From assembly GCF_003324675.1 (NCBI RefSeq), contig NZ_CP030918.1, positions 2,730,001 to 2,762,000 on the forward strand: a DNA stretch of 32,000 bases, written 5' to 3'. The stretch's first letter is position 1. Every line of letters begins with the position of its first letter. This document shows, in pieces, positions 557-25,542 of this stretch. The notes under the pieces were generated by a model, which was not told the DNA's origin, searched no databases, and was given only the letters and a program-made list of their open reading frames with translations. This DNA is from Paracoccus suum. Lineage in GTDB: Bacteria > Pseudomonadota > Alphaproteobacteria > Rhodobacterales > Rhodobacteraceae. Made by a program: the position numbers and the translations under genes.

Positions 557-615
557 GGTTCGATTTCCTCGTCATTTCCGGGGGTGGATCGGGCCCAAAG
601 GCCCGATCCGAAGCG

Positions 616-1011: not shown

Positions 1012-1032
1012 GGCTTTTCCCTCGATCCTGGT

Positions 1033-3121: not shown

Positions 3122-3160
3122 CCGGTGGCCGGACCCCTGCGAGGGGATCCGGCCCCCTCC

Positions 3161-4627
3161 TCAGATCGACAGGCAGACGTATTTCAGCTCGAGGAAGTCG
3201 TCGATGCCGTAATGGCTGCCCTCGCGGCCGAGGCCGGACTGCTTGACGCCGCCGAACGGTGCCACCTCGGTCGAGATGACGCCCGTGTTCACGCCGACGA
3301 TGCCGTATTCCAGACCTTCCTGCACGCGGATGATGCGGGCCATGTCGCGGGCGTAAAAATACGACGCGAGCCCGAAGATCGTATCATTGGCCTTGGCCAC
3401 CACCTCTTCCTCGGTCTCGAACCGGAACAGCGGCGCCAGCGGGCCGAAGGTCTCTTCGGTCGCGACCTTCATGCTGTCCTTGACCCCGGTCACGACCGTC
3501 GGCTGGAAGAAGAGGCCGTCGACCCGCTTGCCGCCGGTGACGATCTTGCCGCCGCCGTCCAGCACGTCCTGGATATGCTCCTCGACCTTGTCGACCGCAT
3601 CCTTGTTGATCAGCGGGCCGGTGGTCACCCCGTCCTCGAGGCCGTCGCCGACCCGCAGCTTGTCGACCGCAGCGGCGAGGCGCCCCGCGAAGTCGTCATA
3701 GACGCCCGACTGCACATAGATGCGGTTGGCGCAGACGCAGGTCTGGCCGTTGTTGCGGAACTTGGAGGCCATCGCGCCCTCCACCGCCTTGTCGAGGTCG
3801 GCGTCGTCAAAGACGATGAAGGGCGCGTTGCCGCCCAGTTCCATGCTGCATTTGAGGACCTGGTCGGCGGCCTGGCGCAGCAGGATGCGCCCGACCTCGG
3901 TCGAGCCGGTGAAGGTCAGCTTGCGTACCTGCGGGTTCTCGCAGAACTCCTTGCCGATCTCGGACGAGCGGCTGGAGGTGACGACCGACAGGATGCCCTT
4001 GGGCAGGCCCGCCCGCTCGCCCAGCACCGCCAGTGCCAGCGCCGACAGCGGGGTCTCCGCCGCCGGGCGCGCGACAAAGCCGCAGCCGACGGCCAGGGCC
4101 GGGCCGCATTTGCGGGTGATCATGGCGTTCGGAAAGTTCCACGGCGTGATGCTGGCGACCACACCGATCGGCTGCTTCAGCACGGTGATGCGCTTGTCGG
4201 GCTGGTGGCCGGGGATCGTCTCGCCATAGACCCGCTTGGCTTCCTCGCCGAAGAACTCGATGAAGCTGGCGCCATAGGCGATCTCGCCCTTGGCCTCGGA
4301 CAGCGGCTTGCCCTGTTCGGCGGTCAGGATCTTGCCCAGGTCGTCCTGGTTTTCCATCATCAGGTCGAACCACTTGCGCAGCACCTGCGCGCGCTCTTTC
4401 GCGGTCCGGGCCGCCCAGGCCTTCATCGCCTCGGCGGCCGCCGCGATGGCGCGCGCGGCATCGGCGCGGGTCATGTCGGCAACCTCGGCAATGACATCGC
4501 CGCGGGCCGGGTTCATCACCGGAAACGTGCTCGCCCCCTCAACCCACTCACCGGCGATATAGGCCCGCGTCTGCAGCAGCGACGGGTCGCGCAAAAGGGT
4601 CCGCAGATCAGTCGAATGCTTGGTCAT
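3161..4627 (-). CDS. gabD: Succinate-semialdehyde dehydrogenase (NAD(P)+), GabD-like
   Basis: ALDH superfamily with strong GabD-like pattern: YIAGEWV, VMNPA, ITPWNFPNAMITRK, catalytic Glu in MELGGNAP, catalytic Cys in NNGQTCVCANR, C-terminal GGVKQSGLGREG. ATG 4627 (MTKHSTD...) gives the typical ~488 aa. An alternative GTG at 4678 would form a GTGA overlap with the upstream ALDH stop. Confidence 0.9.
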   Translation of the reverse strand: MTKHSTDLRTLLRDPSLLQTRAYIAGEWVEGASTFPVMNPARGDVIAEVADMTRADAARAIAAAAEAMKAWAARTAKERAQVLRKWFDLMMENQDDLGKILTAEQGKPLSEAKGEIAYGASFIEFFGEEAKRVYGETIPGHQPDKRITVLKQPIGVVASITPWNFPNAMITRKCGPALAVGCGFVARPAAETPLSALALAVLGERAGLPKGILSVVTSSRSSEIGKEFCENPQVRKLTFTGSTEVGRILLRQAADQVLKCSMELGGNAPFIVFDDADLDKAVEGAMASKFRNNGQTCVCANRIYVQSGVYDDFAGRLAAAVDKLRVGDGLEDGVTTGPLINKDAVDKVEEHIQDVLDGGGKIVTGGKRVDGLFFQPTVVTGVKDSMKVATEETFGPLAPLFRFETEEEVVAKANDTIFGLASYFYARDMARIIRVQEGLEYGIVGVNTGVISTEVAPFGGVKQSGLGREGSHYGIDDFLELKYVCLSI

Positions 4628-4674
4628 GGAAAAGGGGTCCTTTGCAACAGAACGGTTGGACGTAGGGATCGGGC

Positions 4675-6132
4675 TCACCCGCTGGCGATCGAAATGGCCT
4701 TGATCTCGGTGTAACTCAGAAGCTCTTCGATCCCTTCTTCGCGCCCTACCCCACTGTTCTTCATCCCTCCGTAGGGGACGCCGACATAGTGCGGGCCGAC
4801 GCAGTTGATCCAGACATACCCGACCCTCAGCCGCCGGCCGAGGCCCAGCGCGGCACCGACGTCGCGGCCCACGATGCTGGCCGTCAGCCCGAGCGAGGAT
4901 GCATCGTCAATGGCGATGAGTTCGCCCTCGTCGCGCCAGCGGAGCACACTCAGAACAGGTCCGAAGAACTCGTCTCGCGCCAGGGCGTTGTTGGCCGTCA
5001 CGCCGCCAAAGAGGGTCGGCTCGACCCAAAATCCCTTGGCGAACATCGCACCGGCGGGGCGGCCCCCGCCCTCCAGGATTTCCGCGCCTGAGGCCCGTCC
5101 GCGCGCGATGGCGGCCGTGATCTTGGCGTGGTGGGCCTCGGAAATGAGGGGCCCCATTCCGGTCGAGGGATCGAAGGGATCGCCGGGACGGATCGCGCGC
5201 ATGCGGGCCCGTACCCGGGCCAGGACGGCATCATGAATGTCCTCATGCAGCGCCAGGATCGAGGTCGAACCACAGGACTGACCTTGCCACTGAAAGTTCA
5301 TTCCCTCGATCGCGAGGCTGGCCGCCTTTTCCACATCCGCATCAGGCAGCACGATCATCATGTTTTTGCCGCCAAGCTCGTGGGTGATATGCTTGACGCC
5401 GACCTCCGCCGCAGAGCGCTGGATGCGTTGGGCGGTTTCAACCGAGCCGATGAACCCGATGCGTTTGATGCGCGGCTCGCGGACGATGGCGTCGCCGCAG
5501 CGCGCGCCGGTGCCGCTGAGAACGGACGCGACCCCCGCTGGCAGGTGCTCGGCGGCAAGCTCCGCCAGAATTCCCCCCGACAGCGGCGCCTGATCAGGGG
5601 TTTTGACGATAACGCAGTTTCCGGTGATCAGCGGTGCCCCCATTCTGGAAAGGGCGAAATAGAATGGATGGTTGAAGGCGACGATGCGGGCTACGACGCC
5701 GAACGGCTCGCGCAGCGAGAGGTGGACGTGGGTGGGCGTCGCAGGATAGGTCGCCCCCATGACGGCATGGCCGAGGCCGGCATAAAATTCCAGCCGGTCG
5801 GCCGCACGCAGGACGTCACTCAACATCGGCGCGAGTAGGTTGCCGGTATCCTGAACCTCGACGCGCGCGATTTCATCTGCACGGCCCCGAACCGCCGCGG
5901 CAAGTTTGCGCATGGCCGCGGCGCGCGCATCCACCGAAAGGCCGGCCCATGCGGGCCAGGCGGCGTGTGCCGCGTCCACCGCACGGCGGATATCCTCGGG
6001 GCCCGCGTCGGGCGCCACGCCCAAGGGACGGCCAGTCGCCGGGTTCACGGTAGGAAGTTCTGCCCCGTCGGCGGCGTCGCAGAGAACGCCGCCAATCAGC
6101 ATTTTCGCGCGGATCATCGAAGACCCGCTCAT
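4675..6132 (-). CDS. Aldehyde dehydrogenase family protein (substrate unknown)
   Basis: 485-aa ORF with TVNPATG, FNHPFYF, catalytic Glu in HELGGKN, catalytic Cys in QGQSCGSTS and GGMKNSGVGREEG. ATGA overlap with the upstream SBP gene at 6129-6132. Confidence 0.9.
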   Translation of the reverse strand: MSGSSMIRAKMLIGGVLCDAADGAELPTVNPATGRPLGVAPDAGPEDIRRAVDAAHAAWPAWAGLSVDARAAAMRKLAAAVRGRADEIARVEVQDTGNLLAPMLSDVLRAADRLEFYAGLGHAVMGATYPATPTHVHLSLREPFGVVARIVAFNHPFYFALSRMGAPLITGNCVIVKTPDQAPLSGGILAELAAEHLPAGVASVLSGTGARCGDAIVREPRIKRIGFIGSVETAQRIQRSAAEVGVKHITHELGGKNMMIVLPDADVEKAASLAIEGMNFQWQGQSCGSTSILALHEDIHDAVLARVRARMRAIRPGDPFDPSTGMGPLISEAHHAKITAAIARGRASGAEILEGGGRPAGAMFAKGFWVEPTLFGGVTANNALARDEFFGPVLSVLRWRDEGELIAIDDASSLGLTASIVGRDVGAALGLGRRLRVGYVWINCVGPHYVGVPYGGMKNSGVGREEGIEELLSYTEIKAISIASG

Positions 6133-7106
6133 TTGCCTACCATAGCGCCGGACGCGGCGAGGGCGGCCGTGTCCGTCATCCCCGCCGGATCGTAGGCTGC
6201 GTCAATGCTTCCGAGCTTCGCGAGCAGATCGCGTTGCCAGATCAGCTTGGCCGGGTCGATCTTGAAATCGCGCGACACGATGCCGAGGGTGACGATCTCG
6301 TCGAAAACTGCCTCCGGTTCGGGGCTTTCCGCCTTCAGATGGGCGATCTTGCGCGTCAGTGCGGTCGTCTCGTCGCGATTGGCCAAGGCGTGGGTGTAGG
6401 CATCACGCTCGGCTGCAAGGAAGGCGGCGGCATCCTCGGGTCGTTCGGCGAGCGTTTTCCCGGTGACGTAGAGGCAACGCCGCATTGCGTCGGGCAGTGC
6501 ATCAACGGCGTTCGCCACTGCATGCGCGCCTACTTCCTTGGCCTTGGCTGAAAACTCACTCGACGCTGGCGCGGCGTCGATGGCACCTGCGGCAAGCGCC
6601 TGGATGCGCTCTGAATCCGAGCCCGCTGTGACGACCGTAACGTCAGCCTCTGTCAGCCCCTCCTTGTCCAGCAGAGCCCGCGCGAACAGGTCTGGCTGCG
6701 AGCCCGGCGCCGAGACCCCGATCTTCTTACCCTTCAGATCGGCGACAGTTTGGATGCCTTCACGGCCCCACATCACGTAGGACAACTTGGGCCAATGGCA
6801 CCCGATGATCTTGATGTCAGCGCCTTTCGAGGCGGCGATCATCGGGCTGCCAATGGCTCCTTCGTAGCTGTCCAATTCACCCGCGATCAACGCCTTGATA
6901 AGAAGGGTGTCGCCCTTCAGCGTCACCATCTCAATGTCGAGGCCGTGCTTGCGGTCAAAGTCCTTTTCTGCCGCCATGAACAGGAAGCCCGCGTCGCCCT
7001 TGGCCTGCACGGTTCCGTGGCGCCATGGCTTCGCGTCCCGGGCGCAGACGGGCGCCGCAACCACGAGCAGTGAAACCGCCGATACTAAGCCAATCCATTT
7101 TTTCAT
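6129..7106 (-). CDS. ABC transporter periplasmic substrate-binding protein, NMT1/THI5-like (NitT/TauT family), paralog 1
   Basis: Start ATG 7106 (MKKWIGLVSAVSLLVVAAPVCA signal peptide) is preceded by a GGGGGGGAAAGA SD. About half the positions match the second SBP at 10582-11547 by eye (WRHGTV.AKGDAG, LDSYEG, PMIAASKG, GCHW, VSAPG). Confidence 0.8.
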   Translation of the reverse strand: MKKWIGLVSAVSLLVVAAPVCARDAKPWRHGTVQAKGDAGFLFMAAEKDFDRKHGLDIEMVTLKGDTLLIKALIAGELDSYEGAIGSPMIAASKGADIKIIGCHWPKLSYVMWGREGIQTVADLKGKKIGVSAPGSQPDLFARALLDKEGLTEADVTVVTAGSDSERIQALAAGAIDAAPASSEFSAKAKEVGAHAVANAVDALPDAMRRCLYVTGKTLAERPEDAAAFLAAERDAYTHALANRDETTALTRKIAHLKAESPEPEAVFDEIVTLGIVSRDFKIDPAKLIWQRDLLAKLGSIDAAYDPAGMTDTAALAASGAMVGK

Positions 7107-7149
7107 TCTTTCCCCCCCAAAGCGTGACACTTGTCGCATCCGCGCGCCG

Positions 7150-8910
7150 TCATTCGACTGCGGTCATTACCTCGACCACCGCGACTTTCCCTGCCCTCGC
7201 CGCGGCCGCGCCCTCGGCAAGAGCGACTGCCAACTCGGCTGGATTGGTGGCGGGCCCAAAGCCCGAAGCGCCCATGCTGCGCGCCATGGCGAGCAGGTCG
7301 ATCGGTGGATCCTCCATTCGTTGACCGACATGCGCATTGCCGACAGGGCGACCACGATGCTGGGCGACCTCGATCTGATGCAGCTCGTCATTTCCCCAGC
7401 TGCGGTTGTTCGCGATGACGATCAACATTGGCGCACCCGTATGGGCAGCGCTCCAAAGCGCGCCGCCTCCCATGACGAAATCGCCGTCGCCGAGGATCCC
7501 GATGACCAGTTTGCCGCTGTCCTTCAGCGCCAACGCCGCGCCCGCGACTGCGCCAGGGCCGTAGCCGACGCCGCCTCCCCCATCGCCGCCGAGGTAATAG
7601 CCCGAACCGGGAAAGTCCCAGATTCCCGCTTGCCAACTGCGGTGATTGCGCACCGCCAGCAACCAATCGTCACCGCGCACCTCGGCGAAGAGCGCCTCGG
7701 TCAGCTTCGCCAGGCTGACAGTTTCATTGTTGCCCGCCTCGCGTCGGTGCCGGCGGCGTGCTGCAACCTCAGCCTTACGGGCCTTCAGCGTCTCGATGCG
7801 GGCCTGGGAATTCACCCGCCGCCCTTCGGTCATCGCCGCCTCGACCGCCGCCAGCAAGGGACCCAGACTCGCGAGGGCGTCGGCATCGACCCGCAGGTCG
7901 GCGGGCGGCGTCGGTCCACCGAAACGGGCCCAGCTGCCGCCGAACTGATCGTTGCGTGAAATGTCGATGATGTAGGGGGCGGCCCTTCCCACTGCGCCGC
8001 TGCCGGAAAGGATCGCGCTGCGATTGCTGCCATAGCCCAGTGTGGCCGCCGTAAGGTCCTGGCAGTCCAGCGCGAGGATGACGTCAGCTTCACCCCGGAT
8101 GGCGCCATCCCCCTCCATGTTCTGCGGATGGGCCGTTGGCATGCAGACGATGTTCCGATCGTCCAGATAGGCCGCCCCCGTGAGTTCGACGAGCGGGGCG
8201 AGCGCGGCCGTCGTCGCAGGATCGGTGCCAAACCGCCCACCGATGATCAGCGGCAAACGCGCCGCGGCCAACACCTCCGCGATCCGGGTCAGTGTGGCGG
8301 GATCGGGAACAGAAGGCGCCGGGGCGGCAAAGCGAGGCAGAGAAGGATCGGGCAGCACAACGTCGGCATCGGCAGGGCTTTCCTGCAGCCCCGCGTCGAG
8401 AGAAACGTAGACTGGTCCGCGGGGCGCCGTGACGGAACGCCTTCGCGCCTCCAGCATCGCGTCGAGGCAGGCCTGCAGTGTTGCGGGCTCCTCCGCCCAT
8501 TTGACGAAGGGCCGAACGATGTCCGGTTGCGTCGATGCGCAGTGCGCCCAATCAATGAACCGGCGTTCTGCCGGATCTGCCGGACCGCTGCCACCGAGGA
8601 TAAGCAGCGGCACCTGATCGCAGAAGGCATTAAAAACGCCCATCGATCCGTTCAGCAACCCGACCAGGTTGTGCAAAATCGCCACCCCCGGCTCGCCGGA
8701 AGCCTTTGCGTAACCATGCGCCATGGAGACCGCGATCATCTCGTGGGTGGTCAGCACCAGCTTGGGATCGCGGTCATCGAGGCAGTTCACGATGGAATCG
8801 TGCAGTCCGCGAAAGCTGGACCCGGGATTGATGAAAGCATGACGGACGCCCATGGACCGCAGCAGCTCGGCCATCAGGTCCGAGCCGTAGACGACATCTG
8901 TCCCGGTCAT
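7150..8910 (-). CDS. Thiamine-pyrophosphate-dependent enzyme (benzoylformate decarboxylase / acetolactate synthase-like 2-keto-acid decarboxylase family)
   Basis: N-terminal TPP-pyrimidine domain (GVRHAFINPGSS...HEMIAVSMAHGYAKASGEPGV...LLNGSMGVFNAFCDQVPLLILGG). C-terminal TPP/Mg motif GDGDFVMGGGALWSAAHTGAPMLIVIANNRSWGN. Start ATG 8910 forms an ATGA overlap with the permease stop. Confidence 0.85.
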   Translation of the reverse strand: MTGTDVVYGSDLMAELLRSMGVRHAFINPGSSFRGLHDSIVNCLDDRDPKLVLTTHEMIAVSMAHGYAKASGEPGVAILHNLVGLLNGSMGVFNAFCDQVPLLILGGSGPADPAERRFIDWAHCASTQPDIVRPFVKWAEEPATLQACLDAMLEARRRSVTAPRGPVYVSLDAGLQESPADADVVLPDPSLPRFAAPAPSVPDPATLTRIAEVLAAARLPLIIGGRFGTDPATTAALAPLVELTGAAYLDDRNIVCMPTAHPQNMEGDGAIRGEADVILALDCQDLTAATLGYGSNRSAILSGSGAVGRAAPYIIDISRNDQFGGSWARFGGPTPPADLRVDADALASLGPLLAAVEAAMTEGRRVNSQARIETLKARKAEVAARRRHRREAGNNETVSLAKLTEALFAEVRGDDWLLAVRNHRSWQAGIWDFPGSGYYLGGDGGGGVGYGPGAVAGAALALKDSGKLVIGILGDGDFVMGGGALWSAAHTGAPMLIVIANNRSWGNDELHQIEVAQHRGRPVGNAHVGQRMEDPPIDLLAMARSMGASGFGPATNPAELAVALAEGAAAARAGKVAVVEVMTAVE

Positions 8911-9734
8911 TGAACGCCGCGCCCGGAGATTTCCACATGCCAGGGGGCGATGCGCCGCTCCAGCCAACCGACCGCAGCCGTCGCGATCACCGCACCAGCC
9001 ATGATGACGATGATCGGCGCCAGCATCCGCGCTGTCTCGAAGTTATTCGACGCCGTCAGGATGACGCCGCCCAACCCGGAGACGGCGGTAAAGAATTCGG
9101 CCACGATGATCGCGATCACCGCCTTGCCGATCGCGAGCCTGATCCCGGCCATGATGTAGGGCACGACGGCGGGCAGCACGATGCGGGTCAGGATGGTGAA
9201 GGGGCTTGCGACGAAGGACTTCCCGACCTCGAGAAGCGATCGGGGCACCGACTTAACTCCTATCCAGGTGTTGATGCAGATCGGAAAGAAGGTCAGCAGG
9301 GTGACGATCGCGGTCTTTACTGCGAACCCCAGTCCGAACCACAGGACCAGCAGCGGAACCAAGGCGATCAATGGCATGGCATATCCGGCGGTAACGTAAA
9401 TGCCGAAGGCGGCCTCGACCCAACGGAAGCGGCCGAGAAGAAGGCCGAAGGGGATGCCCATCACGAGGGCGAGCAGGAAGCCGGCGGCCATCGGGCGGGT
9501 GCTTTCCCATCCCGCCTTCCACAGCGTGCCTTCTTTGGCCATCACCACCAGCTCGCGGGCGATTGCGGTGGGATAGCTGCCAAACAGCGGATTCACATTG
9601 CGGCCGAAATACTCCCACAGCAAAAGCACGATGAGGATCGAGGCGGTCGTTATGGCCGGTGCCGGGACGCTGAAGCGCGCGGGCTGCGCGTCTGACGGAG
9701 CGGTGTCTTCGAGGATCACGGGATTAGAGCTCAT
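8907..9734 (-). CDS. ABC transporter permease (NitT/TauT family)
   Basis: Polytopic membrane protein with about 6 hydrophobic segments and the typical BPD_transp_1-like pattern. Start ATG 9734 (MSSNPVILED) forms an ATGA overlap with the ATPase stop. Confidence 0.85.
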   Translation of the reverse strand: MSSNPVILEDTAPSDAQPARFSVPAPAITTASILIVLLLWEYFGRNVNPLFGSYPTAIARELVVMAKEGTLWKAGWESTRPMAAGFLLALVMGIPFGLLLGRFRWVEAAFGIYVTAGYAMPLIALVPLLVLWFGLGFAVKTAIVTLLTFFPICINTWIGVKSVPRSLLEVGKSFVASPFTILTRIVLPAVVPYIMAGIRLAIGKAVIAIIVAEFFTAVSGLGGVILTASNNFETARMLAPIIVIMAGAVIATAAVGWLERRIAPWHVEISGRGVQ

Positions 9735-10585: not shown

Positions 10586-11547
10586 TTCGCCGACAACGCG
10601 AGGGCGGCGCGGCGCACCGTGTCATCGACCATCGTTGCCGGATCGAACTTCGCGTCGATGTTGCCCGTTTTCGCCAGAACGTCGCGCAGCCAGTTCAGCT
10701 TTTCGACCGGGACATTGAAATCCATCGCAATGACCCCGGGTTTGCTGGCGAGGTCGTAAGCATAGGCTGCGGTTTCATCGCCATCGGGAAGTTGGGCGAT
10801 CTTCTTGGACAGCGCCAAGGTCTCGTCCTTGTGGGCAAAGGCGTATTTATAAGCTGCCATCTCCGCCGCAATGAATTTGGCCGCGGATTCCTTGGTCGTC
10901 GCGTCTCCGCGCATGACCATGCACAGTCGCATGTAATTGGGTAGCATCGTCTGGCCATCGACGATGGGTTTCAGTCCCAGCTTTTCCGCCTGTGGGGTAA
11001 ACTCGGTCGACGACGGCGCCGCGTCCGCGACGCCGGAGACAACGGCCTTGACGCGGTCCGCGTCCCCTCCGGACGTGACCAAGGTTACCGAGTCGACGGG
11101 AATGCCCTTCTCGATCAGGACCGCCCGCGTGAAAACATCCGGCAATGCCCCCGGCGCCGAAACGGCGACCGTCTTGCCCTGAAGGTCCTCGGCGCTCGCC
11201 AAGGTCTTGGAGAAGATCGAGTATGTAAAGCCCTGCCAGTGGCAGCCGACGATCTTGAGCTTGCCCCCTTTGCTGGCAGCGATCATGGGGCCGGCAGGGT
11301 TGCCCTCGTAGCTGTCGAGCTGGCCAGCCAGCAGCGCCCTCAGGGCCAGCGCGTCGCCCTTGAATTCGCTGACCTGGATGTCGAGACCCTGTTTTTCATC
11401 CATCCCCCCCTCGGCAGCCATGTAGATCAGGCCCGCATCGCCTTTCGCGGCGACCGTCCCGTGCCGCCAGACTTCGAGATCGGCCGCCTGGGCCGCGAAA
11501 GCGGTACAAGCTGCGAGCGCGGCGGTAAGCGTCATTCGGCTTAGCAT
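10582..11547 (-). CDS. ABC transporter periplasmic substrate-binding protein, NMT1/THI5-like, paralog 2 (first gene of the operon)
   Basis: 321-aa ORF with signal peptide MLSRMTLTAALAACTAFAAQA/AD and a strong SD AAGGGGAGA 5 nt upstream of ATG 11547. Paralogous to the product of 6129-7106. Confidence 0.85.
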   Translation of the reverse strand: MLSRMTLTAALAACTAFAAQAADLEVWRHGTVAAKGDAGLIYMAAEGGMDEKQGLDIQVSEFKGDALALRALLAGQLDSYEGNPAGPMIAASKGGKLKIVGCHWQGFTYSIFSKTLASAEDLQGKTVAVSAPGALPDVFTRAVLIEKGIPVDSVTLVTSGGDADRVKAVVSGVADAAPSSTEFTPQAEKLGLKPIVDGQTMLPNYMRLCMVMRGDATTKESAAKFIAAEMAAYKYAFAHKDETLALSKKIAQLPDGDETAAYAYDLASKPGVIAMDFNVPVEKLNWLRDVLAKTGNIDAKFDPATMVDDTVRRAALALSAK

Positions 11548-11600
11548 CGATATCTCCCCTTATCTCTCCCGCCTGCAGAATCCCGCGGGTCCATTCGGCA

Positions 11601-11624
11601 TGTATTATTGTATGACAGAATGAC
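11601..11624. promoter_or_regulatory. Putative GntR/FadR-type operator (core TGTATGACA at 11609-11617)
   Basis: An AT-rich patch tgtattatTGTATGACAgaatgac lies in the 113-nt gap upstream of the ABC/TPP/ALDH operon. The core has the GT-N-AC architecture typical of GntR-family operators. The same 8-mer recurs at 14195 and 17600. Confidence 0.5.
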
Positions 11625-11660
11625 GGCCGTTCTCCCGTCGCGCAAGAACTTTCCGGCGCC

Positions 11661-12899
11661 TTAGTCCAGTTTCATGGCTGCGGCAGTTCGCTGCGCACGC
11701 AACATCGAGCTGCCGAGCAGGAATGCCTTTGCCTTGACGGGATCGGCGGCGATCTGGCGCAGGTTCTCCATGTTCTCGCGCCGGGTCTCAGGGTCGGAAG
11801 CCTCGAGCCGCTTCTTGTTCTCGATGCTCTGCGCCTGGACGAAGTTGATCGAAAGCGAGCGTCTTTGCAGATCGTAAAGGTCCAAAACCTCCTCGCCCGC
11901 ACGGCCGTGCCAGAGGTCCGATAGCTTGGCGACCAGATTGCCCGCGTCCTGGATTCCGCCGTTCAGACCCATCCCGCCGATGGGATTGTTGATATGTGCG
12001 GCGTCGCCCGCGAGCAGAATGCGTCCCTTCCGGAACCGCTCGGCCACCCGTTGATGCACGCGGTAGAGATTGCGGTGAACAATCTCGTGGTCGCGATCGA
12101 GCGGAAAGAATTTCTGCATCTTTGCCTGCACCGCCTCGTCGGACATGATCTCGTCCTCGCTGAGGTCAGTCGAAACCGGGAATACCGTCCGCCACAGGCC
12201 GGGCGGGCCATCCGCGATCACCTTGAAGCAGTTGCACCACTCCTCGGGGTCCGCAAAGTAGCTGCGAAAGCAATACCCCCGCTCTGCTTCGAAATCGAAC
12301 GGGGTGGTTAGAACCAGAAACTGCTCCGGGTAGGTGAAGCCGTCGAAAGGAATTTCCGCGGCCTTCCGGACCAGGCTGCGCCCGCCATCCGCGCCGACCA
12401 GCCAGCTGCCGGTCAGCCGGCTGGGTGCGTCTTGTGACCCTGTCGGGCGAACATCCAGCCAAACGCCGTCGTCGTCCTGGCCTGCGGCGACCACGTCGTA
12501 ACCCATCATGATTTCCGCGTCCGCCTCTCGGCGCAGGTGCGCCAGGGCAATACGCGATGTCTTGAACTGTTCGCACTGCACCACATAGGGAAAGCGCGTT
12601 TCGTCTGCGAGCAGCCCGTGGTCGAACTCGGCTACCAGCTCGCAGGCTGGTCGATCCCAGAACTGAAATACTGGCGCGACCAGACCGGCTGCGCGGACCT
12701 CGCCCTCCAGCCCGAAATCGTCCAGCACTTCCAGCGTGGCTGGATGGGTCGTCGCCGCCCGTGGATCGTCCCTTATCTGGCTTTCACGCTCGACGAGCGT
12801 GACGGGGACTCCCCGGCGGGCGAGCCCCAGCGCGACGAGCAATCCTACGGGGCCGCCGCCTGCGATCAGAACTCGGCCTTGGATATTGTTGTCGGGCAT
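11661..12899 (-). CDS. Class A FAD-dependent monooxygenase (aromatic/heteroaromatic ring hydroxylase family)
   Basis: GxGxxG fold VLIAGGGPVGLLVALGLARRGVPVTLVERE, DG motif VGADGGRSLVRK and GD motif LLAGDAAHINNPIGGMGLNGGIQDAGNL. ATG 12899 is preceded by a GAGGA SD that overlaps the stop of the upstream amidohydrolase. The track start at 12911 is a TTG. Confidence 0.85.
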   Translation of the reverse strand: MPDNNIQGRVLIAGGGPVGLLVALGLARRGVPVTLVERESQIRDDPRAATTHPATLEVLDDFGLEGEVRAAGLVAPVFQFWDRPACELVAEFDHGLLADETRFPYVVQCEQFKTSRIALAHLRREADAEIMMGYDVVAAGQDDDGVWLDVRPTGSQDAPSRLTGSWLVGADGGRSLVRKAAEIPFDGFTYPEQFLVLTTPFDFEAERGYCFRSYFADPEEWCNCFKVIADGPPGLWRTVFPVSTDLSEDEIMSDEAVQAKMQKFFPLDRDHEIVHRNLYRVHQRVAERFRKGRILLAGDAAHINNPIGGMGLNGGIQDAGNLVAKLSDLWHGRAGEEVLDLYDLQRRSLSINFVQAQSIENKKRLEASDPETRRENMENLRQIAADPVKAKAFLLGSSMLRAQRTAAAMKLD

Positions 12900-12907
12900 C
12901 GGAATCC

Positions 12908-14107
12908 TCAATGTGCTGCGGCGCCGGAAAAATCGAATGGCACCCGGTTCTGGGCGACGCGAACCTGGCGCGTGGTGGCTGGCGTATTTCTGCTGCGGCC
13001 TACGAACCGGGGAACGCCGCCCGAGATCACGGCCCCGATGGCGACCGGATCGCCGTTGGAAAGCGACGCCAGCGCATCCTTGCCCGAGCCGCCAAGCGGG
13101 GTGTCGATGAGCGCCAGGTCCGCGTCGCGTCCGGGGGCGATAAAGCCACTATTTCGACGGTAGACGCGGGCATTACTGCCTGTCGCCGCGCAGATCGCGC
13201 GCTCAGGGGCGATGCCGCCCAGGCTCGCGAGGTGGCTGATCGTGTAGATCATCCCCAAAGGCATGATACCGCTGCCAGTCGGGGTGTCGGTCGCGATCAG
13301 CACCCGCTCAAAGCAACCAGCCTCCTCGGCCAGCCTGGCGCATAGAAGGGCGGTGCGAAGATTGCCCGCCGTGCAGATTTGCAGAGCCACGTCGCTTTCA
13401 GCGATGACTTTGGGAAAATCCGCGTCGGGCATGGCGACCGGGCCGCCATTGACATGGAACGACACATCGGGCGCGACGGCGATCACATCGGCACCATGTA
13501 TCGGCGCACTGCCGGGAATGGACGCACCGCCAGTGTGCATTGTCGTGATCATGCCGTGGGCCTTGGCCGCGGCGACCAGCGGGGCGTAGTCGCCTGGACT
13601 TGCCACGGCGCCGAACCCCGCCTTGGCCAACCAGACCCCCTGAGCCGCAAGCTGTGCAAAATCCTCAGCGACGAGGCCGGGCTCCAGGATCACCGAACCC
13701 GCCCAAACCCGCATCCCGCCGGGACGATAGTTGGCAAAGCAGCGTTGCGCCGCCAGTGCCAGGGCTTTCACACCTTCCGGGTCTATAGGGCGGCCGGGCA
13801 CATGGACCTCGGATGCGCTTATGGCAGTCGTCACGCCGCCGTGGAGGTAGCTCTCCAGGTAACCGACCGTTTTTTGCCGCGGCGTGTAATCGCCGAAGGT
13901 GATGTGGACATGACTGTCGATCAGGCCGGGAATCAGAGTGGTGCCGCCAGCGTCGATGACAACGTCACAGCTTTCGACGAGGCCGGGATCTGCGGTCCCG
14001 ACCGAGTGGATCAGCCCACCCTCGGTCACGACCGCGTCGGCGTTGCCGAGAGGCTCGGCCAAATCCCCCGTTACAAGCTGACCGATGTTGGTGATTGCGA
14101 TCCGCAT
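12908..14107 (-). CDS. Metal-dependent amidohydrolase-superfamily hydrolase (enamidase-like subgroup, tentative)
   Basis: 399-aa ORF with the N-terminal composite domain and HxH metal motif PGLIDSHVHITFGDYTPRQKT, then LHGGVTT, MHTGGASIPGS, HVNGGP and a late Asp in IATDTPTGSG. Resemblance to enamidase is from memory only. An AAGGGG SD precedes ATG 14107. Confidence 0.8.
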   Translation of the reverse strand: MRIAITNIGQLVTGDLAEPLGNADAVVTEGGLIHSVGTADPGLVESCDVVIDAGGTTLIPGLIDSHVHITFGDYTPRQKTVGYLESYLHGGVTTAISASEVHVPGRPIDPEGVKALALAAQRCFANYRPGGMRVWAGSVILEPGLVAEDFAQLAAQGVWLAKAGFGAVASPGDYAPLVAAAKAHGMITTMHTGGASIPGSAPIHGADVIAVAPDVSFHVNGGPVAMPDADFPKVIAESDVALQICTAGNLRTALLCARLAEEAGCFERVLIATDTPTGSGIMPLGMIYTISHLASLGGIAPERAICAATGSNARVYRRNSGFIAPGRDADLALIDTPLGGSGKDALASLSNGDPVAIGAVISGGVPRFVGRSRNTPATTRQVRVAQNRVPFDFSGAAAH

Positions 14108-14194
14108 AAGCCGCCCCTTGTGTCTCGGTATCCCGGTCTCCGCTGCGGCCTTCGGCCAACAGAGCTTTCTCTCTGGTGAGACTAGAAAAACTTT

Positions 14195-14219
14195 TGTATG
14201 ACGAGAATACAGTATGTCA
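14195..14219. promoter_or_regulatory. Putative GntR/FadR-type operator pair in the divergent promoter region (TGTATGACG 14195-14203 plus related aGTATGTCA 14212-14219)
   Basis: The sequence ttTGTATGACgagaatacaGTATGTCAa lies between the divergently transcribed amidohydrolase operon (start 14107) and the EthD-like/GntR operon (start 14233). It is the most AT-rich patch of the intergenic region. Confidence 0.5.
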
Positions 14220-14232
14220 ATGGGAGACCGAC

Positions 14233-14886
14233 ATGGCGGGCGCAGTTCTTTTCTCGGAGATGACCCCTTCCCCGGACTGGGAGGGCGAGTTCAATGAGTG
14301 GTACGACAACGAACACATCCCCTTGCGCATGACGGTGCCGGGATTCACGGGCGCCCAACGCTACAAGCGCAATGACCGCGATTACCTCGCTGTCTACGAC
14401 ATGACCGGCACCGACGTCCTGCAAACCCCGGCCTATGTCGAAATCAAGGACAATCCGACGGCCATGACTGCGCGGATGCTCGGTTCCGTAGGCGGATTTA
14501 CCCGCTACATCGGCACCGAGATCGGCTTTCAGTCTAACGTGGCGCTTGACGACGCAATTCCCGCTCCGGTGCTGTATTCCGTACTATTTTCAGTTCCCGG
14601 CGACCGGCTTGGCGACTTTGACGCGTGGTATGACCAGGACCATCTGCCCGCCCTCCTCGAAAACCCCGACTGGCTGGCTTGCCGTCGCTTTTCGCTCGAA
14701 GTCGCGCATCCGCAACCTTTCAACCGCCTCGCGCTTCACTACCTGGCCACTGACGAAGCCTTGGATTCCCCGGCCCGCGAGAAGGCCCGTGCAACGCCCG
14801 GGCGGGCGCGGCTTGCCGCCGAGCCTTGGTTTCAGGCCGATTATAAGGTCTTTTACCTCCACGGCGAACGGTTTAGCGCAAGGTGA
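14233..14886 (+). CDS. Tandem EthD-like / dimeric alpha-beta-barrel domain protein (function unknown)
   Basis: ATG 14233 is preceded by a GGGAGA SD, and the track start GTG 14176 would run through the operator region. There is an internal duplication: EGEFNEWYDNEHIPLRMTVPGFTGAQRY versus LGDFDAWYDQDHLPALLENPDWLACRRF. The F..WY...H.P motif resembles EthD-like domains from memory. Confidence 0.6.
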   Translation: MAGAVLFSEMTPSPDWEGEFNEWYDNEHIPLRMTVPGFTGAQRYKRNDRDYLAVYDMTGTDVLQTPAYVEIKDNPTAMTARMLGSVGGFTRYIGTEIGFQSNVALDDAIPAPVLYSVLFSVPGDRLGDFDAWYDQDHLPALLENPDWLACRRFSLEVAHPQPFNRLALHYLATDEALDSPAREKARATPGRARLAAEPWFQADYKVFYLHGERFSAR

Positions 14887-14895
14887 CGGCGTAAA

Positions 14896-15609
14896 ATGAG
14901 GGCGGTCATGAGTGGAAAGCTTGCCACGAGCAAACCGCAAGCGGGCGTAGCGGCCCTGAGGTCGATCGGAACGCCGGTGCTGGTCCGCGAGCAAGCCTAT
15001 GACGGTTTGCGCGATGCCATCGTGAATGGTCAGCTGCCGCCTGGCACGCGCCTTGTCGAGCGCGAGCTATGCGAGGCGCTCGGGGTCAGCCGCACGTCAC
15101 TGCGCGAGGCGCTGCGGCGCCTCGAGGCGCAACGCCTGATCCAGGTCGAAGGCAGGCGCGGGCCGACGGTGGCCCGCCTCACCCGTGACCAGGCCTCGCA
15201 GATCTACACCCTGCGCAAGTATCTCGAGGGAGAGCTGTTCGACCGCTTGGCCCGCCTGACAGACCCCGCGAACCTGACCGAGCTTACCGCAGCATTCGAC
15301 AGCTTCCACCATGCGGTGAACGATCAGGATGTTGCGCGGGCGGTCGAGGTGATGGTCGAATTCTATGCCGTCGCCACGAGGATGCCCAGCGTCGACGTGA
15401 TCGAGGAAGTCCTGAGCGAGTTGACCGCCCGGGTAAGCTACCTGCGCTATCGCACCATGTCGCGCCCGGGCCGCATGGAGCAATCGCTACGCGAAATCAG
15501 GGCTATCGTCGAGGCCGTAGCCGCAGGCGATCCAGAAAGGGCACGTGCGGCCGCGGTTGAGCATATCGACAAGGCCGCGACGATTGCCCTGAAACTGCTG
15601 GACAACTGA
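14896..15609 (+). CDS. GntR-family transcriptional regulator, FadR subfamily (FCD effector domain)
   Basis: N-terminal winged HTH: AYDGLRDAIVNGQLPPGTRLVERELCEALGVSRTSLREALRRLEAQRLI. The all-helical C-terminal domain is typical of FCD. It lies 9 nt downstream of the EthD-like gene and is probably co-transcribed with it. Confidence 0.9.
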   Translation: MRAVMSGKLATSKPQAGVAALRSIGTPVLVREQAYDGLRDAIVNGQLPPGTRLVERELCEALGVSRTSLREALRRLEAQRLIQVEGRRGPTVARLTRDQASQIYTLRKYLEGELFDRLARLTDPANLTELTAAFDSFHHAVNDQDVARAVEVMVEFYAVATRMPSVDVIEEVLSELTARVSYLRYRTMSRPGRMEQSLREIRAIVEAVAAGDPERARAAAVEHIDKAATIALKLLDN

Positions 15610-15616
15610 TCGGATT

Positions 15617-16987
15617 TTATCGCGACACCATCCAGCGGGCAAAGGCGAACAGGGCTGCATCCTGACCCTGCGCCGCGAGCAGCTGGATACCCAAGGGTAG
15701 ACCTTCGTCCTGCAGGATCGGCAACGAGACTGCGGGCACGCCCAGCAGTGACGCGGGGACGTTGAAGGCTGGATCGCCAGTCGAGTCCGCGCCCACCGGA
15801 GCGGCACCGGTTGCGGCCAAGGTGATGGTCCCATCGTACCGTTGCATCACGTTGTCGAACACGGTTCGGGCTGCGTCCCTTTGACTTAGGGCCTGCGCGT
15901 AGTCTGACTGGGTCATTTCCTCGGCGGTCGAAAGGCGCCTGCGCATGACGGGACTGAGTTTGCTTGCATCCTGTCTCGCGTAGGTCCCGAGGGGCCAGCG
16001 GAACTCCCAAGCATTGATCTTTTGGGTCAGCGGCAATGCATCCGCGATCGCTTGCTCCACACCGGCGAGCGCCGGGTCCGTCGCCTCGTCGACTACATCC
16101 ACGCCACGTCGCCGCAACTCCTCGACGAGAGCATCGAAGGCAGTTCGTGCGCCGGAGGTCGCACGCGGCCAACCCTCCGTGCGCAAAAGTGCGAGCCGCG
16201 TCGGCTGGACGGCAGGCGGCAAATCGTCGGGCCCCGAAAGCCCCGGGTGACCGGGATCCCCGCCCACGCGCTTCGCGATTGTCCGGGCGGCAAGCCACAG
16301 ATCCTCCAACGAGGCGCCAAGCAAACCGACGCAGCTTTGGCTGAGATAATCGTAGCTGCCGCCGCGGTTGAGCGCACCGAAGGTTGGCTTGAAGCCGTAA
16401 CATCCACAGTAGCTTGCCGGCCGCAGTGTCGAGCCGACCACCTGACTGCCAAGCGCAATGGGAACGAACCCAGCACCCACTGCCGCCGCCGATCCGCTGC
16501 TGGAACCCCCCGGCGTCCGAGCAGGATCATGAGGGTTGGTGGTGCGTGCAAAAAGTTCTGTGGTGGCGAACTCGGTCGTCGTCGTTTTTCCGACGATGAC
16601 CGCGCCAGCCTCGCGAAGCGCCTGCACGCTCGCCGCATCGCGTCGCGTCTCGAAACCCTCCCAGAGGGGCGAGCCTTGGCCGGTGGGCATATCGCTTGTC
16701 TCTATGATGTCCTTGACGGCGACCGGAATGCCATCGAGCGGCGACAAGGGGCATCCCGCCGCCCACCGTTGCGCCGACGCTGTCGCGGCCGTGCGGGCAG
16801 CATCCCGCGCCTGGCAAACGAACGCGCCGACACGCGGCTCGTCCCGGTCGATCCTCGCGAACGTCTCCTCCAGAACGCTGACAGGTGAGCTTACGCCTGA
16901 CCGAAATCTTGCCGTTAACGCGGCAGAGGGCGTCAGAGCGCCCTGCCCCGCGTCGCGCTGCAAGTCGTCAACCTCATACAAGGCCAT
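15617..16987 (-). CDS. Amidase-signature (AS) family amidase
   Basis: Catalytic Lys context VAVKDIIETSDMPT and AS signature GGSSSGSAAAVGAGFVPIALGSQVVGSTLRPASYCG. ATG 16987 lies 1 nt after the TAA stop of the upstream gene, so the earlier track start at 17023 is unlikely. It converges on the GntR gene with only 7 nt between the stops. Confidence 0.9.
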   Translation of the reverse strand: MALYEVDDLQRDAGQGALTPSAALTARFRSGVSSPVSVLEETFARIDRDEPRVGAFVCQARDAARTAATASAQRWAAGCPLSPLDGIPVAVKDIIETSDMPTGQGSPLWEGFETRRDAASVQALREAGAVIVGKTTTTEFATTELFARTTNPHDPARTPGGSSSGSAAAVGAGFVPIALGSQVVGSTLRPASYCGCYGFKPTFGALNRGGSYDYLSQSCVGLLGASLEDLWLAARTIAKRVGGDPGHPGLSGPDDLPPAVQPTRLALLRTEGWPRATSGARTAFDALVEELRRRGVDVVDEATDPALAGVEQAIADALPLTQKINAWEFRWPLGTYARQDASKLSPVMRRRLSTAEEMTQSDYAQALSQRDAARTVFDNVMQRYDGTITLAATGAAPVGADSTGDPAFNVPASLLGVPAVSLPILQDEGLPLGIQLLAAQGQDAALFAFARWMVSR

Positions 16988-16988
16988 C

Positions 16989-17567
16989 TTAGCGCGCGCT
17001 CTTGCGGGCCACGACCTCTTCATGTGTCAGGCCGCCCACCCGGGCGTTCAGCCGTCCACCGCTGGCCGCGCAAAAGATGAGCGCGACCTCGTCCGCCCGC
17101 GGGCCGTTGGGCACTGCGATGGTCATGCCGTCGTAGTGCGACCGCACGTAGACCTCGTCCTTGTGGTTCATTGGAATGTCGATGGGCGTGTTCGGTGCGA
17201 CGACCTTCTGGAAGGAGGAGATCCAAGCCTCGCCGCCACCGATCTGCGCGCGGATAGGATCGGCAAAGGCCGTCGTCAGCAGAGCGTTGGCATGCTCTTG
17301 CTCGCCATCCAGACCGACGAGGCCGCCTTTTCCGTAGCTCTGCACCTCGCACCCATCCATCAGATCAACGAGCTTGCGACCCATCTTTTCGCCCAGCGCC
17401 GGGCTCGCGTCGATGAGTTCTCGAAGGTCGGCACCCGAAGTCCCCGCCATCGGGTTTTCCAGCACGAACACCACGGCGGCTTTGCGCAGAGGCTCCTCAA
17501 CACGCGTTGCGCCGTCCTCCCAGACATCTTCTACGAAGGAGAGGACGCGGCGAATGTTCAGATTCAT
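16989..17567 (-). CDS. Amino-acid-synthesis (AA_synth, PF06684-like) family protein of unknown function
   Basis: The ~192-aa product (MNLNIRRVLSFVEDVWEDGA...KAAVVFVLENP...QSYGKGGLVG..GEQEHANALL...) matches my memory of the AA_synth family. ATG 17567 is preceded by a GGAGAG SD. Confidence 0.75.
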   Translation of the reverse strand: MNLNIRRVLSFVEDVWEDGATRVEEPLRKAAVVFVLENPMAGTSGADLRELIDASPALGEKMGRKLVDLMDGCEVQSYGKGGLVGLDGEQEHANALLTTAFADPIRAQIGGGEAWISSFQKVVAPNTPIDIPMNHKDEVYVRSHYDGMTIAVPNGPRADEVALIFCAASGGRLNARVGGLTHEEVVARKSAR

Positions 17568-17599
17568 GTAACTCTCCAGCATGGCTCAGCAGATATTAC

Positions 17600-17616
17600 T
17601 GTATGACAAACTGTCA
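17600..17616. promoter_or_regulatory. Putative GntR/FadR-type operator (TGTATGACA 17600-17608 followed by aacTGTCA)
   Basis: The sequence attacTGTATGACAaacTGTCAg lies 33 nt upstream of the AA_synth start codon. It carries the same 8-mer as at 11609 and 14195. Confidence 0.5.
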
Positions 17617-19611: not shown

Positions 19612-19806
19612 GAGTGAGTCACCTACTCGTTTCCGTTAATTTTGGGAAGGACGAGGATGGGTGCCTCGAAAAGCAAAAGGGCCAGCGCCGGCCGGCGGAC
19701 GTTTCGCCGCGGCCTTGCAGGGGTGCAGTCTAAGCGCATTTCGTCTAGACTGGCTGCGCAGGCAGCCCGGCAGCGACGCGCCCGGCGGCCGTGGGAGGCG
19801 AGCGCC

Positions 19807-20529: not shown

Positions 20530-20572
20530 AGCCAGCGGACCCGCCCGCGACAGCAACTATCGCTCGCAGCAC

Positions 20573-20586
20573 TTGATCTCGATCAA
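20573..20586. promoter_or_regulatory. Perfect FNR/FixK box (anaerobox) TTGAT-CTCG-ATCAA upstream of ccoI
   Basis: Exact match to the consensus TTGAT-N4-ATCAA, 78 nt upstream of ccoI ATG 20664 and 43 nt after the fnrL stop. It is the only perfect copy I found in the window. Confidence 0.8.
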
Positions 20587-20663
20587 ACTATTTCCCACCC
20601 CGAACTGGCCTCATGGGGGGAAAGGCAGGATGGCTCGCGTGACAACCCACACGCGACAAGGCC

Positions 20664-24750: not shown

Positions 24751-24754
24751 AACG

Positions 24755-25540: not shown

Positions 25541-25542
25541 AG

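Follow-up and report, generated by a model that had tools for sequence, protein, structure and literature searches.

The 13 genes described in this study lie between positions 3161 and 17582 of a 32,000-nucleotide stretch of the Paracoccus suum genome (contig NZ_CP030918.1, positions 2,730,001 to 2,762,000; the whole stretch is referred to as the window), and include an enamidase-like amidohydrolase (hereafter Ena) next to a flavin monooxygenase. The closest described systems are routes for the opening of N-heterocycles. The enamidase of Eubacterium barkeri (EC 3.5.2.18; PDB 2vun) hydrolyzes a cyclic enamide with loss of ammonia, leaving an aldehyde. In the trigonelline (tgn) pathway of Acinetobacter baylyi ADP1, said to have been described by Perchat et al. 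in 2018, a flavin enzyme reportedly oxidizes an N-heterocyclic carboxylate, followed by hydrolytic opening to succinate semialdehyde; the tgn oxygenase is a two-component enzyme that cleaves the ring directly, and trigonelline keeps its N-methyl group and yields methylamine. In the aerobic degradation of pyrrole-2-carboxylate (EC 1.14.13.130; Arthrobacter Py1 and Rhodococcus), flavin-dependent hydroxylation gives a lactam, which is opened by hydrolysis with loss of ammonia, and the reported product is 2-oxoglutarate. A single-component pyrrole-2-carboxylate monooxygenase is also said to exist in Arthrobacter, and we know of no gene sequences for this pathway, EC 1.14.13.130 having, as far as is known, no assigned gene. 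The Rut and vitamin B6 routes likewise combine a flavin oxygenase with a hydrolase, and the enamine or imine is handled by a small chorismate-mutase-fold protein (RutC/RidA); succinate semialdehyde is likewise the end point of the vitamin B6 route, with its MHPC oxygenase and 2-(acetamidomethylene)succinate hydrolase. PnpA (4-nitrophenol 4-monooxygenase) and HspB (6-hydroxy-3-succinoylpyridine 3-monooxygenase) hydroxylate a substituted ring carbon with expulsion of the substituent, giving benzoquinone and 2,5-dihydroxypyridine, respectively, for which reductases or ring-cleaving dioxygenases are then required. The two-component pyrrole-2-carboxylate monooxygenase belongs to group D, the HpaB type (PMC6165268). 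The succinate-semialdehyde dehydrogenase (SSADH) of the tgn pathway, TgnE, is reported to be assisted by a protein of the DUF1185 family, TgnF (PMC7913881).

Set beside these systems, the P. suum cluster follows the oxidative-hydrolytic logic by which N-heterocycles are opened in the tgn, vitamin B6 and Rut routes and in the enamidase step of nicotinate fermentation, and is a member of none of them, tgn being judged by its description. We propose, with a probability of roughly 60%, that the cluster constitutes one catabolic regulon for an N-heterocyclic carboxylic acid, which would be under the control of a GntR/FCD-type regulator; the regulon is found also in other soil and marine bacteria. 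After listing of the open reading frames and after Pfam and NCBIfam profile searches and PDB sequence searches with the window proteins, all 13 protein families named in an initial annotation, which had been made from the sequence without database searches, were borne out. In the following list, FAD stands for flavin adenine dinucleotide, TPP for thiamine pyrophosphate, ABC for ATP-binding cassette and aa for amino acids.

16989-17582, minus strand: AA_synth/DUF1185 protein, 197 aa, PF06684, first gene of the AA_synth-amidase unit
15617-16987, minus strand: amidase-signature amidase, 456 aa from ATG 16987, PF01425
14896-15609, plus strand: GntR/FadR-type regulator (helix-turn-helix plus FCD), PF00392 and PF07729
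14233-14886, plus strand: tandem EthD/DUF4286 protein, 217 aa
12908-14107, minus strand: enamidase-like amidohydrolase Ena, 399 aa, PDB 2vun
11661-12899, minus strand: class A FAD-dependent monooxygenase (FMO), 412 aa from ATG 12899, PF01494
10582-11547, minus strand: NMT1/SsuA-like periplasmic binding protein 1 (SBP1), PF09084
9731-10585, minus strand: ABC transporter ATPase, NCBIfam nitrate/taurine-type models, all below cut-off
8907-9734, minus strand: ABC transporter permease, SsuC/TauC-like
7150-8910, minus strand: TPP-dependent enzyme, 586 aa, PF02776 and PF02775
6129-7139, minus strand: NMT1/SsuA-like periplasmic binding protein 2 (SBP2), PF09084
4675-6132, minus strand: aldehyde dehydrogenase ALDH2, PF00171, specificity not assigned by the models
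3161-4678, minus strand: GabD-type SSADH, TIGR01780, last gene of the operon
3127-3154, minus strand: GC-rich hairpin GGCCGGATCCCCT-CGC-AGGGGTCCGGCC, read from the sequence directly 3' of the gabD stop, with no T tail; possibly the operon end

The center of the cluster is the pair of Ena and FMO. Ena was found to match the E. barkeri enamidase 2vun over its full length (E = 3.7e-103, residues 4-383; 45% identity across 378 residues), and the alignment showed that the metal motifs are retained (HxH at H66 and H68, then H191, H218 and D274), while isoaspartyl dipeptidases and hydantoinases gave only weak and partial PDB matches; the label 'enamidase-like', given in the initial annotation, was thus right. 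More than 7,600 homologs of Ena were detected at E<=1e-30 in the protein collection, many of them labelled 'enamidase' by JGI. Ena likely carries out the same chemistry as the E. barkeri enzyme. Its partners are, however, different (FMO, AA_synth, the EthD tandem protein and SSADH); the host lives aerobically, and another ring must serve as the substrate. FMO is a single polypeptide with the FAD_binding_3 domain (PF01494, 6e-64, residues 13-358), for which no NCBIfam equivalog cut-off was reached, and its nearest solved relatives are PnpA (6ain, 1.2e-65) and HspB (7da9, 2.5e-56). Orthologs of FMO with 47-70% identity adjoin Ena in the loci L001, L009, L014, L025, L036, L047, L069, L084, L086, L089 and L090 (L numbers denote the related loci used for comparison).

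For the comparison across genomes, 80 genome loci carrying Ena homologs of 67-74% identity were each compared with all the window proteins, using gene calls from a simple GC3 filter. The numbers of these loci with a given gene within 9 kb of Ena were as follows.

AA_synth: 56 of 80
HpaB-type two-component oxygenase: 51 of 80
MarR regulator: 39 of 80
GntR ortholog: 10 of 80
EthD-tandem protein: 8 of 80
Class A monooxygenase: 7 of 80
Amidase: 2 of 80
Split TPP pair: 2 of 80
586-aa TPP enzyme: 0 of 80

A monooxygenase of either type, class A or HpaB, was thus present in 57 of the 80 loci, both types occurring together in one of them, and a flavin reductase family was detected within 7 kb of Ena in 22 loci. 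No ring-cleaving dioxygenase was found among the neighboring genes scanned or those with precomputed Pfam annotation, and therefore the ring opening would be hydrolytic, which in turn points to a lactam-forming N-heterocycle. Ring hydroxylation followed by hydrolytic C-N cleavage, the order already suggested from the window sequence, stands out from this comparison as the conserved heart of the system. In a midpoint-rooted neighbor-joining tree of Ena, the clusters of the EthD/GntR type, including the window, were separated from the large group of the HpaB/MarR type; within the EthD/GntR-type group, a distant HpaB takes the place of the class A FMO in L024, L029 and L052, with a flavin reductase in L024. 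Since two unrelated monooxygenase families fill the same slot, hydroxylation is considered to be the step coupled to the hydrolase. A bare Ena-AA_synth pair was found in L081.

The smallest clusters indicate what may be needed. In Paraburkholderia sp. Ac-20336 (L089), a GntR gene and the EthD gene are divergent from an operon for AA_synth, Ena (64% identity), FMO (49%), a GabD-like protein (58%), an MFS transporter and a porin. In Roseitranquillus sediminis (L090), the arrangement is the same without GabD and is followed by a TRAP-TAXI transporter and an alpha/beta hydrolase. Neither of these compact clusters encodes an amidase, a TPP enzyme or a second aldehyde dehydrogenase, and their whole catabolic content consists of core genes. 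Five proteins and a transporter thus appear to suffice for reaching central metabolism, the exit apparently being an aldehyde for the GabD-type enzyme. The core, that is the EthD tandem and GntR genes divergent from AA_synth, Ena, FMO and SSADH plus a transporter, is conserved in Alpha- and Betaproteobacteria.

The proposal of a single regulon is based on a shared operator-like sequence. The 32 kb of the window contain the 8-mer GTCATACA, the central part of the palindrome TTGTCATACAA, exactly three times, against an expectation of 0.13, and none of 100 shuffles reached three copies. One copy is located in each promoter region, namely in the divergent gap between Ena and EthD, in the gap in front of the transporter operon, and upstream of AA_synth. 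The sites, together with a weaker one, are listed below.

14194-14204, minus strand: operator-like site TCGTCATACAA, divergent promoter region
14210-14220, minus strand: weaker operator-like site TTGACATACTG, divergent promoter region
11608-11618, minus strand: operator-like site CTGTCATACAA, in the 113-nucleotide gap upstream of the transporter operon
17599-17609, minus strand: operator-like palindrome TTGTCATACAG, upstream of AA_synth

In the divergent region of the compact clusters, the palindrome TTGTCATACAA is present as an exact copy in Roseitranquillus (L090) and with one mismatch, TTGTCGTACAA, in Paraburkholderia (L089). In Devosia nitrariae (L001) it is located before Ena, before AA_synth (14727) and before the binding-protein gene of the transporter (19069); in L069 before GntR, before Ena and before the operon for UbiD and the transporter (19203); in L009 just before AA_synth (7687); and in L084 before the ALDH2-TPP-TctC operon (8505). 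Exact copies of TGTCATACA in the other 70 loci amounted to a mean of 0.03 per locus. This recurrence constitutes a phylogenetic footprint of a single operator, to which GntR is predicted to bind. Because GTCATACA is present at all three promoter regions and the palindrome at equivalent places in orthologous clusters, the cluster is predicted to form one GntR regulon, in agreement with the GntR control suggested in the initial annotation. The regulator itself carries an N-terminal helix-turn-helix (PF00392, 1.5e-19) and a C-terminal FCD domain (PF07729, 2.4e-20), and in L009, L014, L024, L029, L052, L089 and L090 its gene forms a pair with the EthD-like gene that diverges from the AA_synth/Ena operon.

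The predicted exit from the pathway is the GabD-type protein. It scored above the cut-off of the SSADH subfamily (TIGR01780, 712.6 bits versus 646.35) and below that of the equivalog for the NADP-dependent GabD of E. coli (NF008415, 765.8 bits versus 828). GabD orthologs with 55-58% identity come directly after FMO in L001, L086 and L089, and in L084 this slot is occupied by an aldehyde dehydrogenase gene clipped by the end of the locus. Both the subfamily score and the GabD exit of the compact cluster L089 support succinate semialdehyde as the end point, as had been anticipated. The AA_synth protein was assigned with high score (PF06684, 6.2e-61, 205 bits versus a cut-off of 27, residues 10-183), and its PDB matches, 2qtp (6.6e-38) and 3byq, are both uncharacterized structures; the structure paper of this family offers no function beyond 'amino-acid metabolism' (PMC2954203). 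SSADH and AA_synth belong to one regulon or operon in the window, L001, L086 and L089, and most of the Ena/AA_synth loci are without SSADH nearby. A GabD-type exit fits the one functional report on DUF1185, that of TgnF and TgnE (PMC7913881).

The EthD-like protein is indeed a tandem, as the initial annotation had noticed, and the mutual homology of its two halves (E = 2e-8) indicates a true internal duplication. Pfam and NCBIfam gave weak DUF4286 and EthD matches, and the PDB sequence search gave no match for this protein. The AlphaFold2 (AF2) model, with a pLDDT of 96.3, is a fused pair of ferredoxin-like alpha+beta barrels, and the fold search returned only broad superfamily matches. The best of them, with TM 0.55-0.70 and 10-15% identity, were an anthrone-oxidase-like protein (5f9p), cofactor-free monooxygenases, coproheme decarboxylase and bacterial chalcone isomerase. 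A second conserved context of the tandem DUF4286/EthD protein was observed in L036 (14248-16872, minus strand) and L088 (17697-20977, minus strand), where it is accompanied by a FAD_binding_3 monooxygenase of 417 aa, a DHDPS-family enzyme and, optionally, an HbpS-like protein, with a LysR gene nearby.

The transporter and the remaining enzymes vary between the clusters. SBP1 and SBP2 matched PF09084 (9.9e-13 and 4e-21, respectively), TIGR01728 staying below its cut-off for SBP1, and in the PDB search with SBP2 the nearest solved binding proteins were uninformative on the ligand. Orthologous clusters carry TTT, TRAP-TAXI or MFS transporters in place of the NMT1-type ABC system, and the suggestion that the NMT1-like proteins bind pyridine- or pyrimidine-type ligands gained no support. 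TTT and TRAP systems carry carboxylates, and their presence in orthologous clusters therefore indicates an anionic substrate. A thiamine-precursor transporter of the ThiXYZ type was also considered and rejected, no TPP riboswitch and no Rfam family at gathering score being detected anywhere in the window.

The amidase (PF01425, 2.9e-75) is nearest among solved structures to malonamidase E2 (1ock, 2.3e-59, full length), and its orthologs were found only in L001 (59%) and L047 (52%), for which reason it is regarded as an accessory gene. No NCBIfam cut-off was reached by the amidase, the TPP enzyme or ALDH2; for ALDH2 (PF00171, 2.9e-131) the best NCBIfam model was betaine-aldehyde dehydrogenase with 387 bits versus a cut-off of 593. 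The TPP enzyme, equal in length to P0121, showed a distant likeness to benzaldehyde lyase and benzoylformate decarboxylase (BFDC) in PDB, both at about 1e-26. Its orthologs (57-60% identity) always come directly after an ortholog of ALDH2 (65-67%; L084, L086 and L088), and on the metagenomic contigs L084 and L086 the TPP-ALDH2 pair is present together with Ena, FMO and GabD, with TctABC replacing the ABC system. Decarboxylases of the UbiD family were found in L047, L069 and L036, where they adjoin the transporter or the cluster, and in L087, beside a TPP-ALDH module.

L047:14648-16393: UbiD-family decarboxylase
L069:17439-19184, minus strand: UbiD-family decarboxylase
L036:1523-3148, minus strand: UbiD-family decarboxylase
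L087:21468-21776: UbiD-family decarboxylase beside the TPP-ALDH module

The L047 protein is closest to the furandicarboxylate decarboxylase HmfF (6h6x, 1e-39), followed by the pyrrole-2-carboxylate decarboxylase PA0254/HudA (7e-27), and both of these are listed among the UbiD enzymes with heteroaromatic substrates. For the thiamin-dependent decarboxylation of a heteroaromatic acid there is a precedent in LumK/LumL (PMC12746152). The amidase and the TPP-ALDH2 pair are probably add-ons specific to this genome, with UbiD as the putative analogous enzyme in sister clusters. As the core is self-sufficient elsewhere, the variable genes are read most simply as alternative feeders, by which relatives of the substrate (an amide, a compound with a 2-oxo-acid side chain, a dicarboxylate) are turned into the core substrate.

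As side observations on the related loci, a commoner sister cluster, also uncharacterized, was recognized in about 50 of the 80 loci (L006-L080; for example L010:4981-12343, L013 and L056). It consists of a Liv-type ABC transporter, MarR, AA_synth, the HpaB-type oxygenase, Ena, a small cupin, flavin reductase and DUF2848, and its Ena is located on the opposite side of the midpoint root of the Ena tree. A split TPP decarboxylase, encoded by an N-domain and a C-domain gene (194 and 198 aa), follows Ena directly in L010:11158-12343 and in L006 (about +1.2 to +2.4 kb), and the sizes resemble those of LumK/LumL, the heterocycle decarboxylase of riboflavin catabolism. This split enzyme was considered as a core member from its position directly after Ena in L010, yet was rejected with its presence in only 2 of the 80 loci. 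Beside the TPP/Ena clusters, L084:17646-20783 and L086:1070-5442 encode proteins of the isochorismatase family and the Amdase/Asp-Glu-racemase family and another FAD_binding_3 monooxygenase, reminiscent of maleamate-type pyridine pathways; L086:1070-5442 additionally holds a polysaccharide-deacetylase-family protein. A TauE/SafE-family (TSUP) membrane protein, absent from the window, comes directly after the GabD ortholog in L001:13958-14707 and L086:21174-21785.

Combining these results, the following pathway is proposed. The ABC system would import an N-heterocyclic carboxylate, and FMO would hydroxylate the ring at or next to the alpha-carbon of the ring nitrogen, possibly with loss of CO2 as judged from its ipso-substituting relatives PnpA and HspB. 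The hydroxy-heterocycle would tautomerize to a cyclic enamide, that is a lactam, with the EthD tandem protein as the candidate isomerase or tautomerase. Ena would then hydrolyze the lactam and the resulting enamine, setting free ammonia and an aldehyde that either is succinate semialdehyde or decarboxylates to it, and SSADH, aided by AA_synth as TgnE is by TgnF, would oxidize succinate semialdehyde to succinate. The malonamidase-like amidase and the TPP enzyme with ALDH2 (2-oxo acid to aldehyde to acid) may feed related compounds into the core substrate. Of the interpretation given in the initial annotation, the single regulon, the combination of hydroxylation with C-N hydrolysis and the SSADH exit are supported by the comparative evidence. 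Its linear order, in which amide hydrolysis, 2-keto-acid decarboxylation and a first aldehyde oxidation were obligatory steps, is not supported, because the amidase and the TPP-ALDH2 pair are variable, being missing from L089 and L090 and replaced elsewhere by UbiD.

As to the substrate, a five-membered ring of the pyrrole-carboxylate type would be the class that fits best by inference, because one hydroxylation plus one hydrolysis yields a C4 aldehyde. One hydroxylation of pyrrole yields a non-aromatic lactam directly, while hydroxypyridines stay aromatic and normally need reduction or a dioxygenase. The more specific assignment, that the cluster family as a whole, the EthD/GntR type and the larger HpaB/MarR sister type together, represents the aerobic catabolism of pyrrole-carboxylates such as pyrrole-2-carboxylate, to which no genes are known to have been assigned, is offered only as a tentative suggestion and is more probably wrong than right.

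Several points weigh against the proposal of one regulon for an N-heterocyclic carboxylate. Many of the 80 loci are related metagenome bins of Hyphomicrobiales, and the locus counts such as 57 of 80 do not represent independent events. The chemical steps all follow from family membership and synteny. Glutarate semialdehyde is also oxidized by enzymes of the GabD type, and the product may therefore be a C5 compound from a six-membered ring. The fold modelled for the EthD-like protein would be equally compatible with an oxygenase, isomerase or decarboxylase function. The TPP enzyme and ALDH2 share their operon with the transporter and SSADH, and could be downstream steps in P. suum. Lastly, L087 and L088 carry the TPP-ALDH2 pair with no Ena within 10 kb of it.

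This last observation would also be expected if the cluster were a mosaic, in which the transporter-TPP-ALDH2 operon is devoted to a substrate of its own (for instance an aryl-glyoxylate or another 2-oxo acid, mandelate-like) and is located merely beside the Ena/FMO module. The lack of the TPP enzyme in all 80 genome loci around Ena homologs and in the compact core clusters L089 and L090 points in the same direction. The operator-like palindrome is, however, present before the transporter-TPP operon of the window (11608-11618) and before ALDH2-TPP-TctC in L084; L084 and L086 each combine TPP and ALDH2 with Ena, FMO and GabD on one contig; and SSADH, which elsewhere follows FMO, ends the transporter-TPP-ALDH2 operon in the window. 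With these links between the two modules, we consider the mosaic unlikely.

A slightly weaker alternative is based on the amidase. The ring could be a saturated or oxidized non-aromatic one, succinimide- or maleimide-like, on which Ena acts as an imidase or lactamase, and from whose product the amidase strips the remaining amide nitrogen, FMO acting elsewhere in the pathway. Malonamidase E2, the nearest solved relative of the amidase, uses a small carboxy-amide as its substrate. The amidase gene shows translational coupling to that of AA_synth in the window, and in L001 these two genes overlap; in addition, the amidohydrolase superfamily is known to include imidases. In contrast, the amidase is restricted to L001 and L047, most orthologous clusters being without it, no gene is linked to Ena more tightly than that of the monooxygenase, and Ena resembles the enamidase over its full length with 45% identity, the dipeptidase and hydantoinase matches being weak and partial. 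Such a lactam or cyclic-imide route is thus rather improbable.

The classical nicotinate route, with Ena as a true enamidase on 1,4,5,6-tetrahydro-6-oxonicotinate as in E. barkeri or Azorhizobium, is suggested by the strong similarity to the E. barkeri enzyme and by the JGI labels on many homologs, but is highly improbable, with no nicotinate dehydrogenase (molybdenum hydroxylase) or 6-hydroxynicotinate reductase (iron-sulfur reductase) among the window proteins scanned, with a flavin monooxygenase as the conserved partner, and with SSADH as the end enzyme instead of enzymes handling 2-formylglutarate or glutarate.

The proposed regulon for an N-heterocyclic carboxylate differs also from the other systems introduced above. 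No dioxygenase, isochorismatase or Asp/Glu-racemase-type protein of the maleamate-type pyridine pathways (nic, pic, nicotine) is present among the 13 cluster genes. PnpA and HspB are the closest solved relatives of FMO, and none of the reductases or ring-cleaving dioxygenases needed for their products was found among the genes scanned. The Rut and vitamin B6 enzymes are of different families (luciferase-like RutA, isochorismatase RutB, alpha/beta hydrolase), and there the oxygenase itself opens the ring. The pyrrole-2-carboxylate monooxygenase of the HpaB type corresponds to the oxygenase beside most of the Ena homologs; that route is, however, reported to end in 2-oxoglutarate, whereas the clusters described here carry SSADH. 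The homarine operon homABCDER is similar to the cluster in dealing with an N-heterocyclic carboxylate, in encoding FAD, hydrolase-like and aldehyde-dehydrogenase-like proteins with a regulator, and in its occurrence in Rhodobacterales (PMC13236597). In that operon homA (about 700 nucleotides) and homB (about 1,700 nucleotides) form an adjacent pair for flavin supply and oxygenation, and the products are N-methylglutamate and glutamate (PMC13236597). As the identity of the cluster the hom operon was rejected, the gene sizes, architecture and products being different and no homA/homB-like pair being present in the window. In a literature search, no published characterization of such a gene cluster was found.

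With respect to gene organization, the minus strand carries 11 of the 13 cluster genes, and the plus strand the EthD/DUF4286 tandem and GntR genes, which diverge from the amidohydrolase gene; the description of all units as co-oriented hence does not hold for the EthD-GntR unit. The initial annotation had further described the genes as largely overlapping by 4 nucleotides. This is the case for four exact ATGA junctions (SBP1/ATPase, ATPase/permease, permease/TPP and SBP2/ALDH2) and for the GTGA junction of ALDH2/GabD, where an ATG about 50 nucleotides further on is an alternative, and it is not the case for the other three, with 1-10 nucleotides between the genes: Ena/FMO is more likely TGA, followed by 8 nucleotides with a GAGGA ribosome-binding site and then ATG; AA_synth/amidase is TAAgATG, a tight coupling; and TPP/SBP2 has a gap of 10 nucleotides. 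An upstream start at ATG 17023 is possible for the amidase. The start of the EthD-like gene is ATG 14233 and not GTG 14176, the product matching P0241 in length (217 aa) and sequence. A simple sigma-70 promoter scan was uninformative (5 found versus 1.9 expected, none at the expected places), as was the scan for intrinsic terminators (15 found versus 10.5 expected), which gave none at the expected places and missed the hairpin at 3127-3154.

The neighboring genes in the window were also inspected. Positions 71-2625 (minus strand) encode a flavin amine oxidase (PF01593), which carries the twin-arginine motif SRRDLL close to the N-terminus, and after it a RidA-like protein bearing a Sec-type signal peptide. 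The pair resembles an exported oxidase of amines or amino acids combined with an imine deaminase. This pair was considered as a feeder of the cluster and rejected; because it is not conserved beside any related locus, it is regarded as a mere neighbor. Directly upstream of the AA_synth promoter region, 17947-19611 (minus strand) encodes a 554-aa protein with N-terminal hydrophobic segments and a glutamate-synthase FMN domain (PF01645, 1.2e-85). Positions 19642-30198 carry respiration genes unrelated to the cluster, including an FnrL/FixK-type regulator, a FixI-like P-type ATPase, a DUF2189 membrane protein, a COX1-family oxidase subunit (23095-24750), a cytochrome c (27727-28254) and a PQQ dehydrogenase (28294-30198).

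Numerous enamidase homologs carry only the annotation 'amidohydrolase' or the misleading 'enamidase'. The present analysis places the Ena homologs of Alpha- and Betaproteobacteria in a conserved oxidative-hydrolytic module with a defined regulator and a predicted operator, and turns a vague annotation into a testable pathway with a shortlist of candidate substrates and succinate semialdehyde as the predicted end product. The pair of regulator and operator could serve as a biosensor for finding the inducer, and DUF1185 and the DUF4286/EthD tandem, both families without known function, are given a defined biochemical context. Should the substrate prove to be a pyrrole acid, EC 1.14.13.130 would gain its genes. 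If the tentative assignment of the cluster family to pyrrole-carboxylates is true, DUF1185/AA_synth would assist the ring-opening hydrolase and SSADH by handling an enamine or aldehyde, and the tandem DUF4286/EthD protein would be a pyrrolinone isomerase, tautomerase or decarboxylase, which would be the first enzymatic functions for two domains of unknown function; the enamidase fold would then be a general ring opener for hydroxylated N-heterocycles in aerobes.

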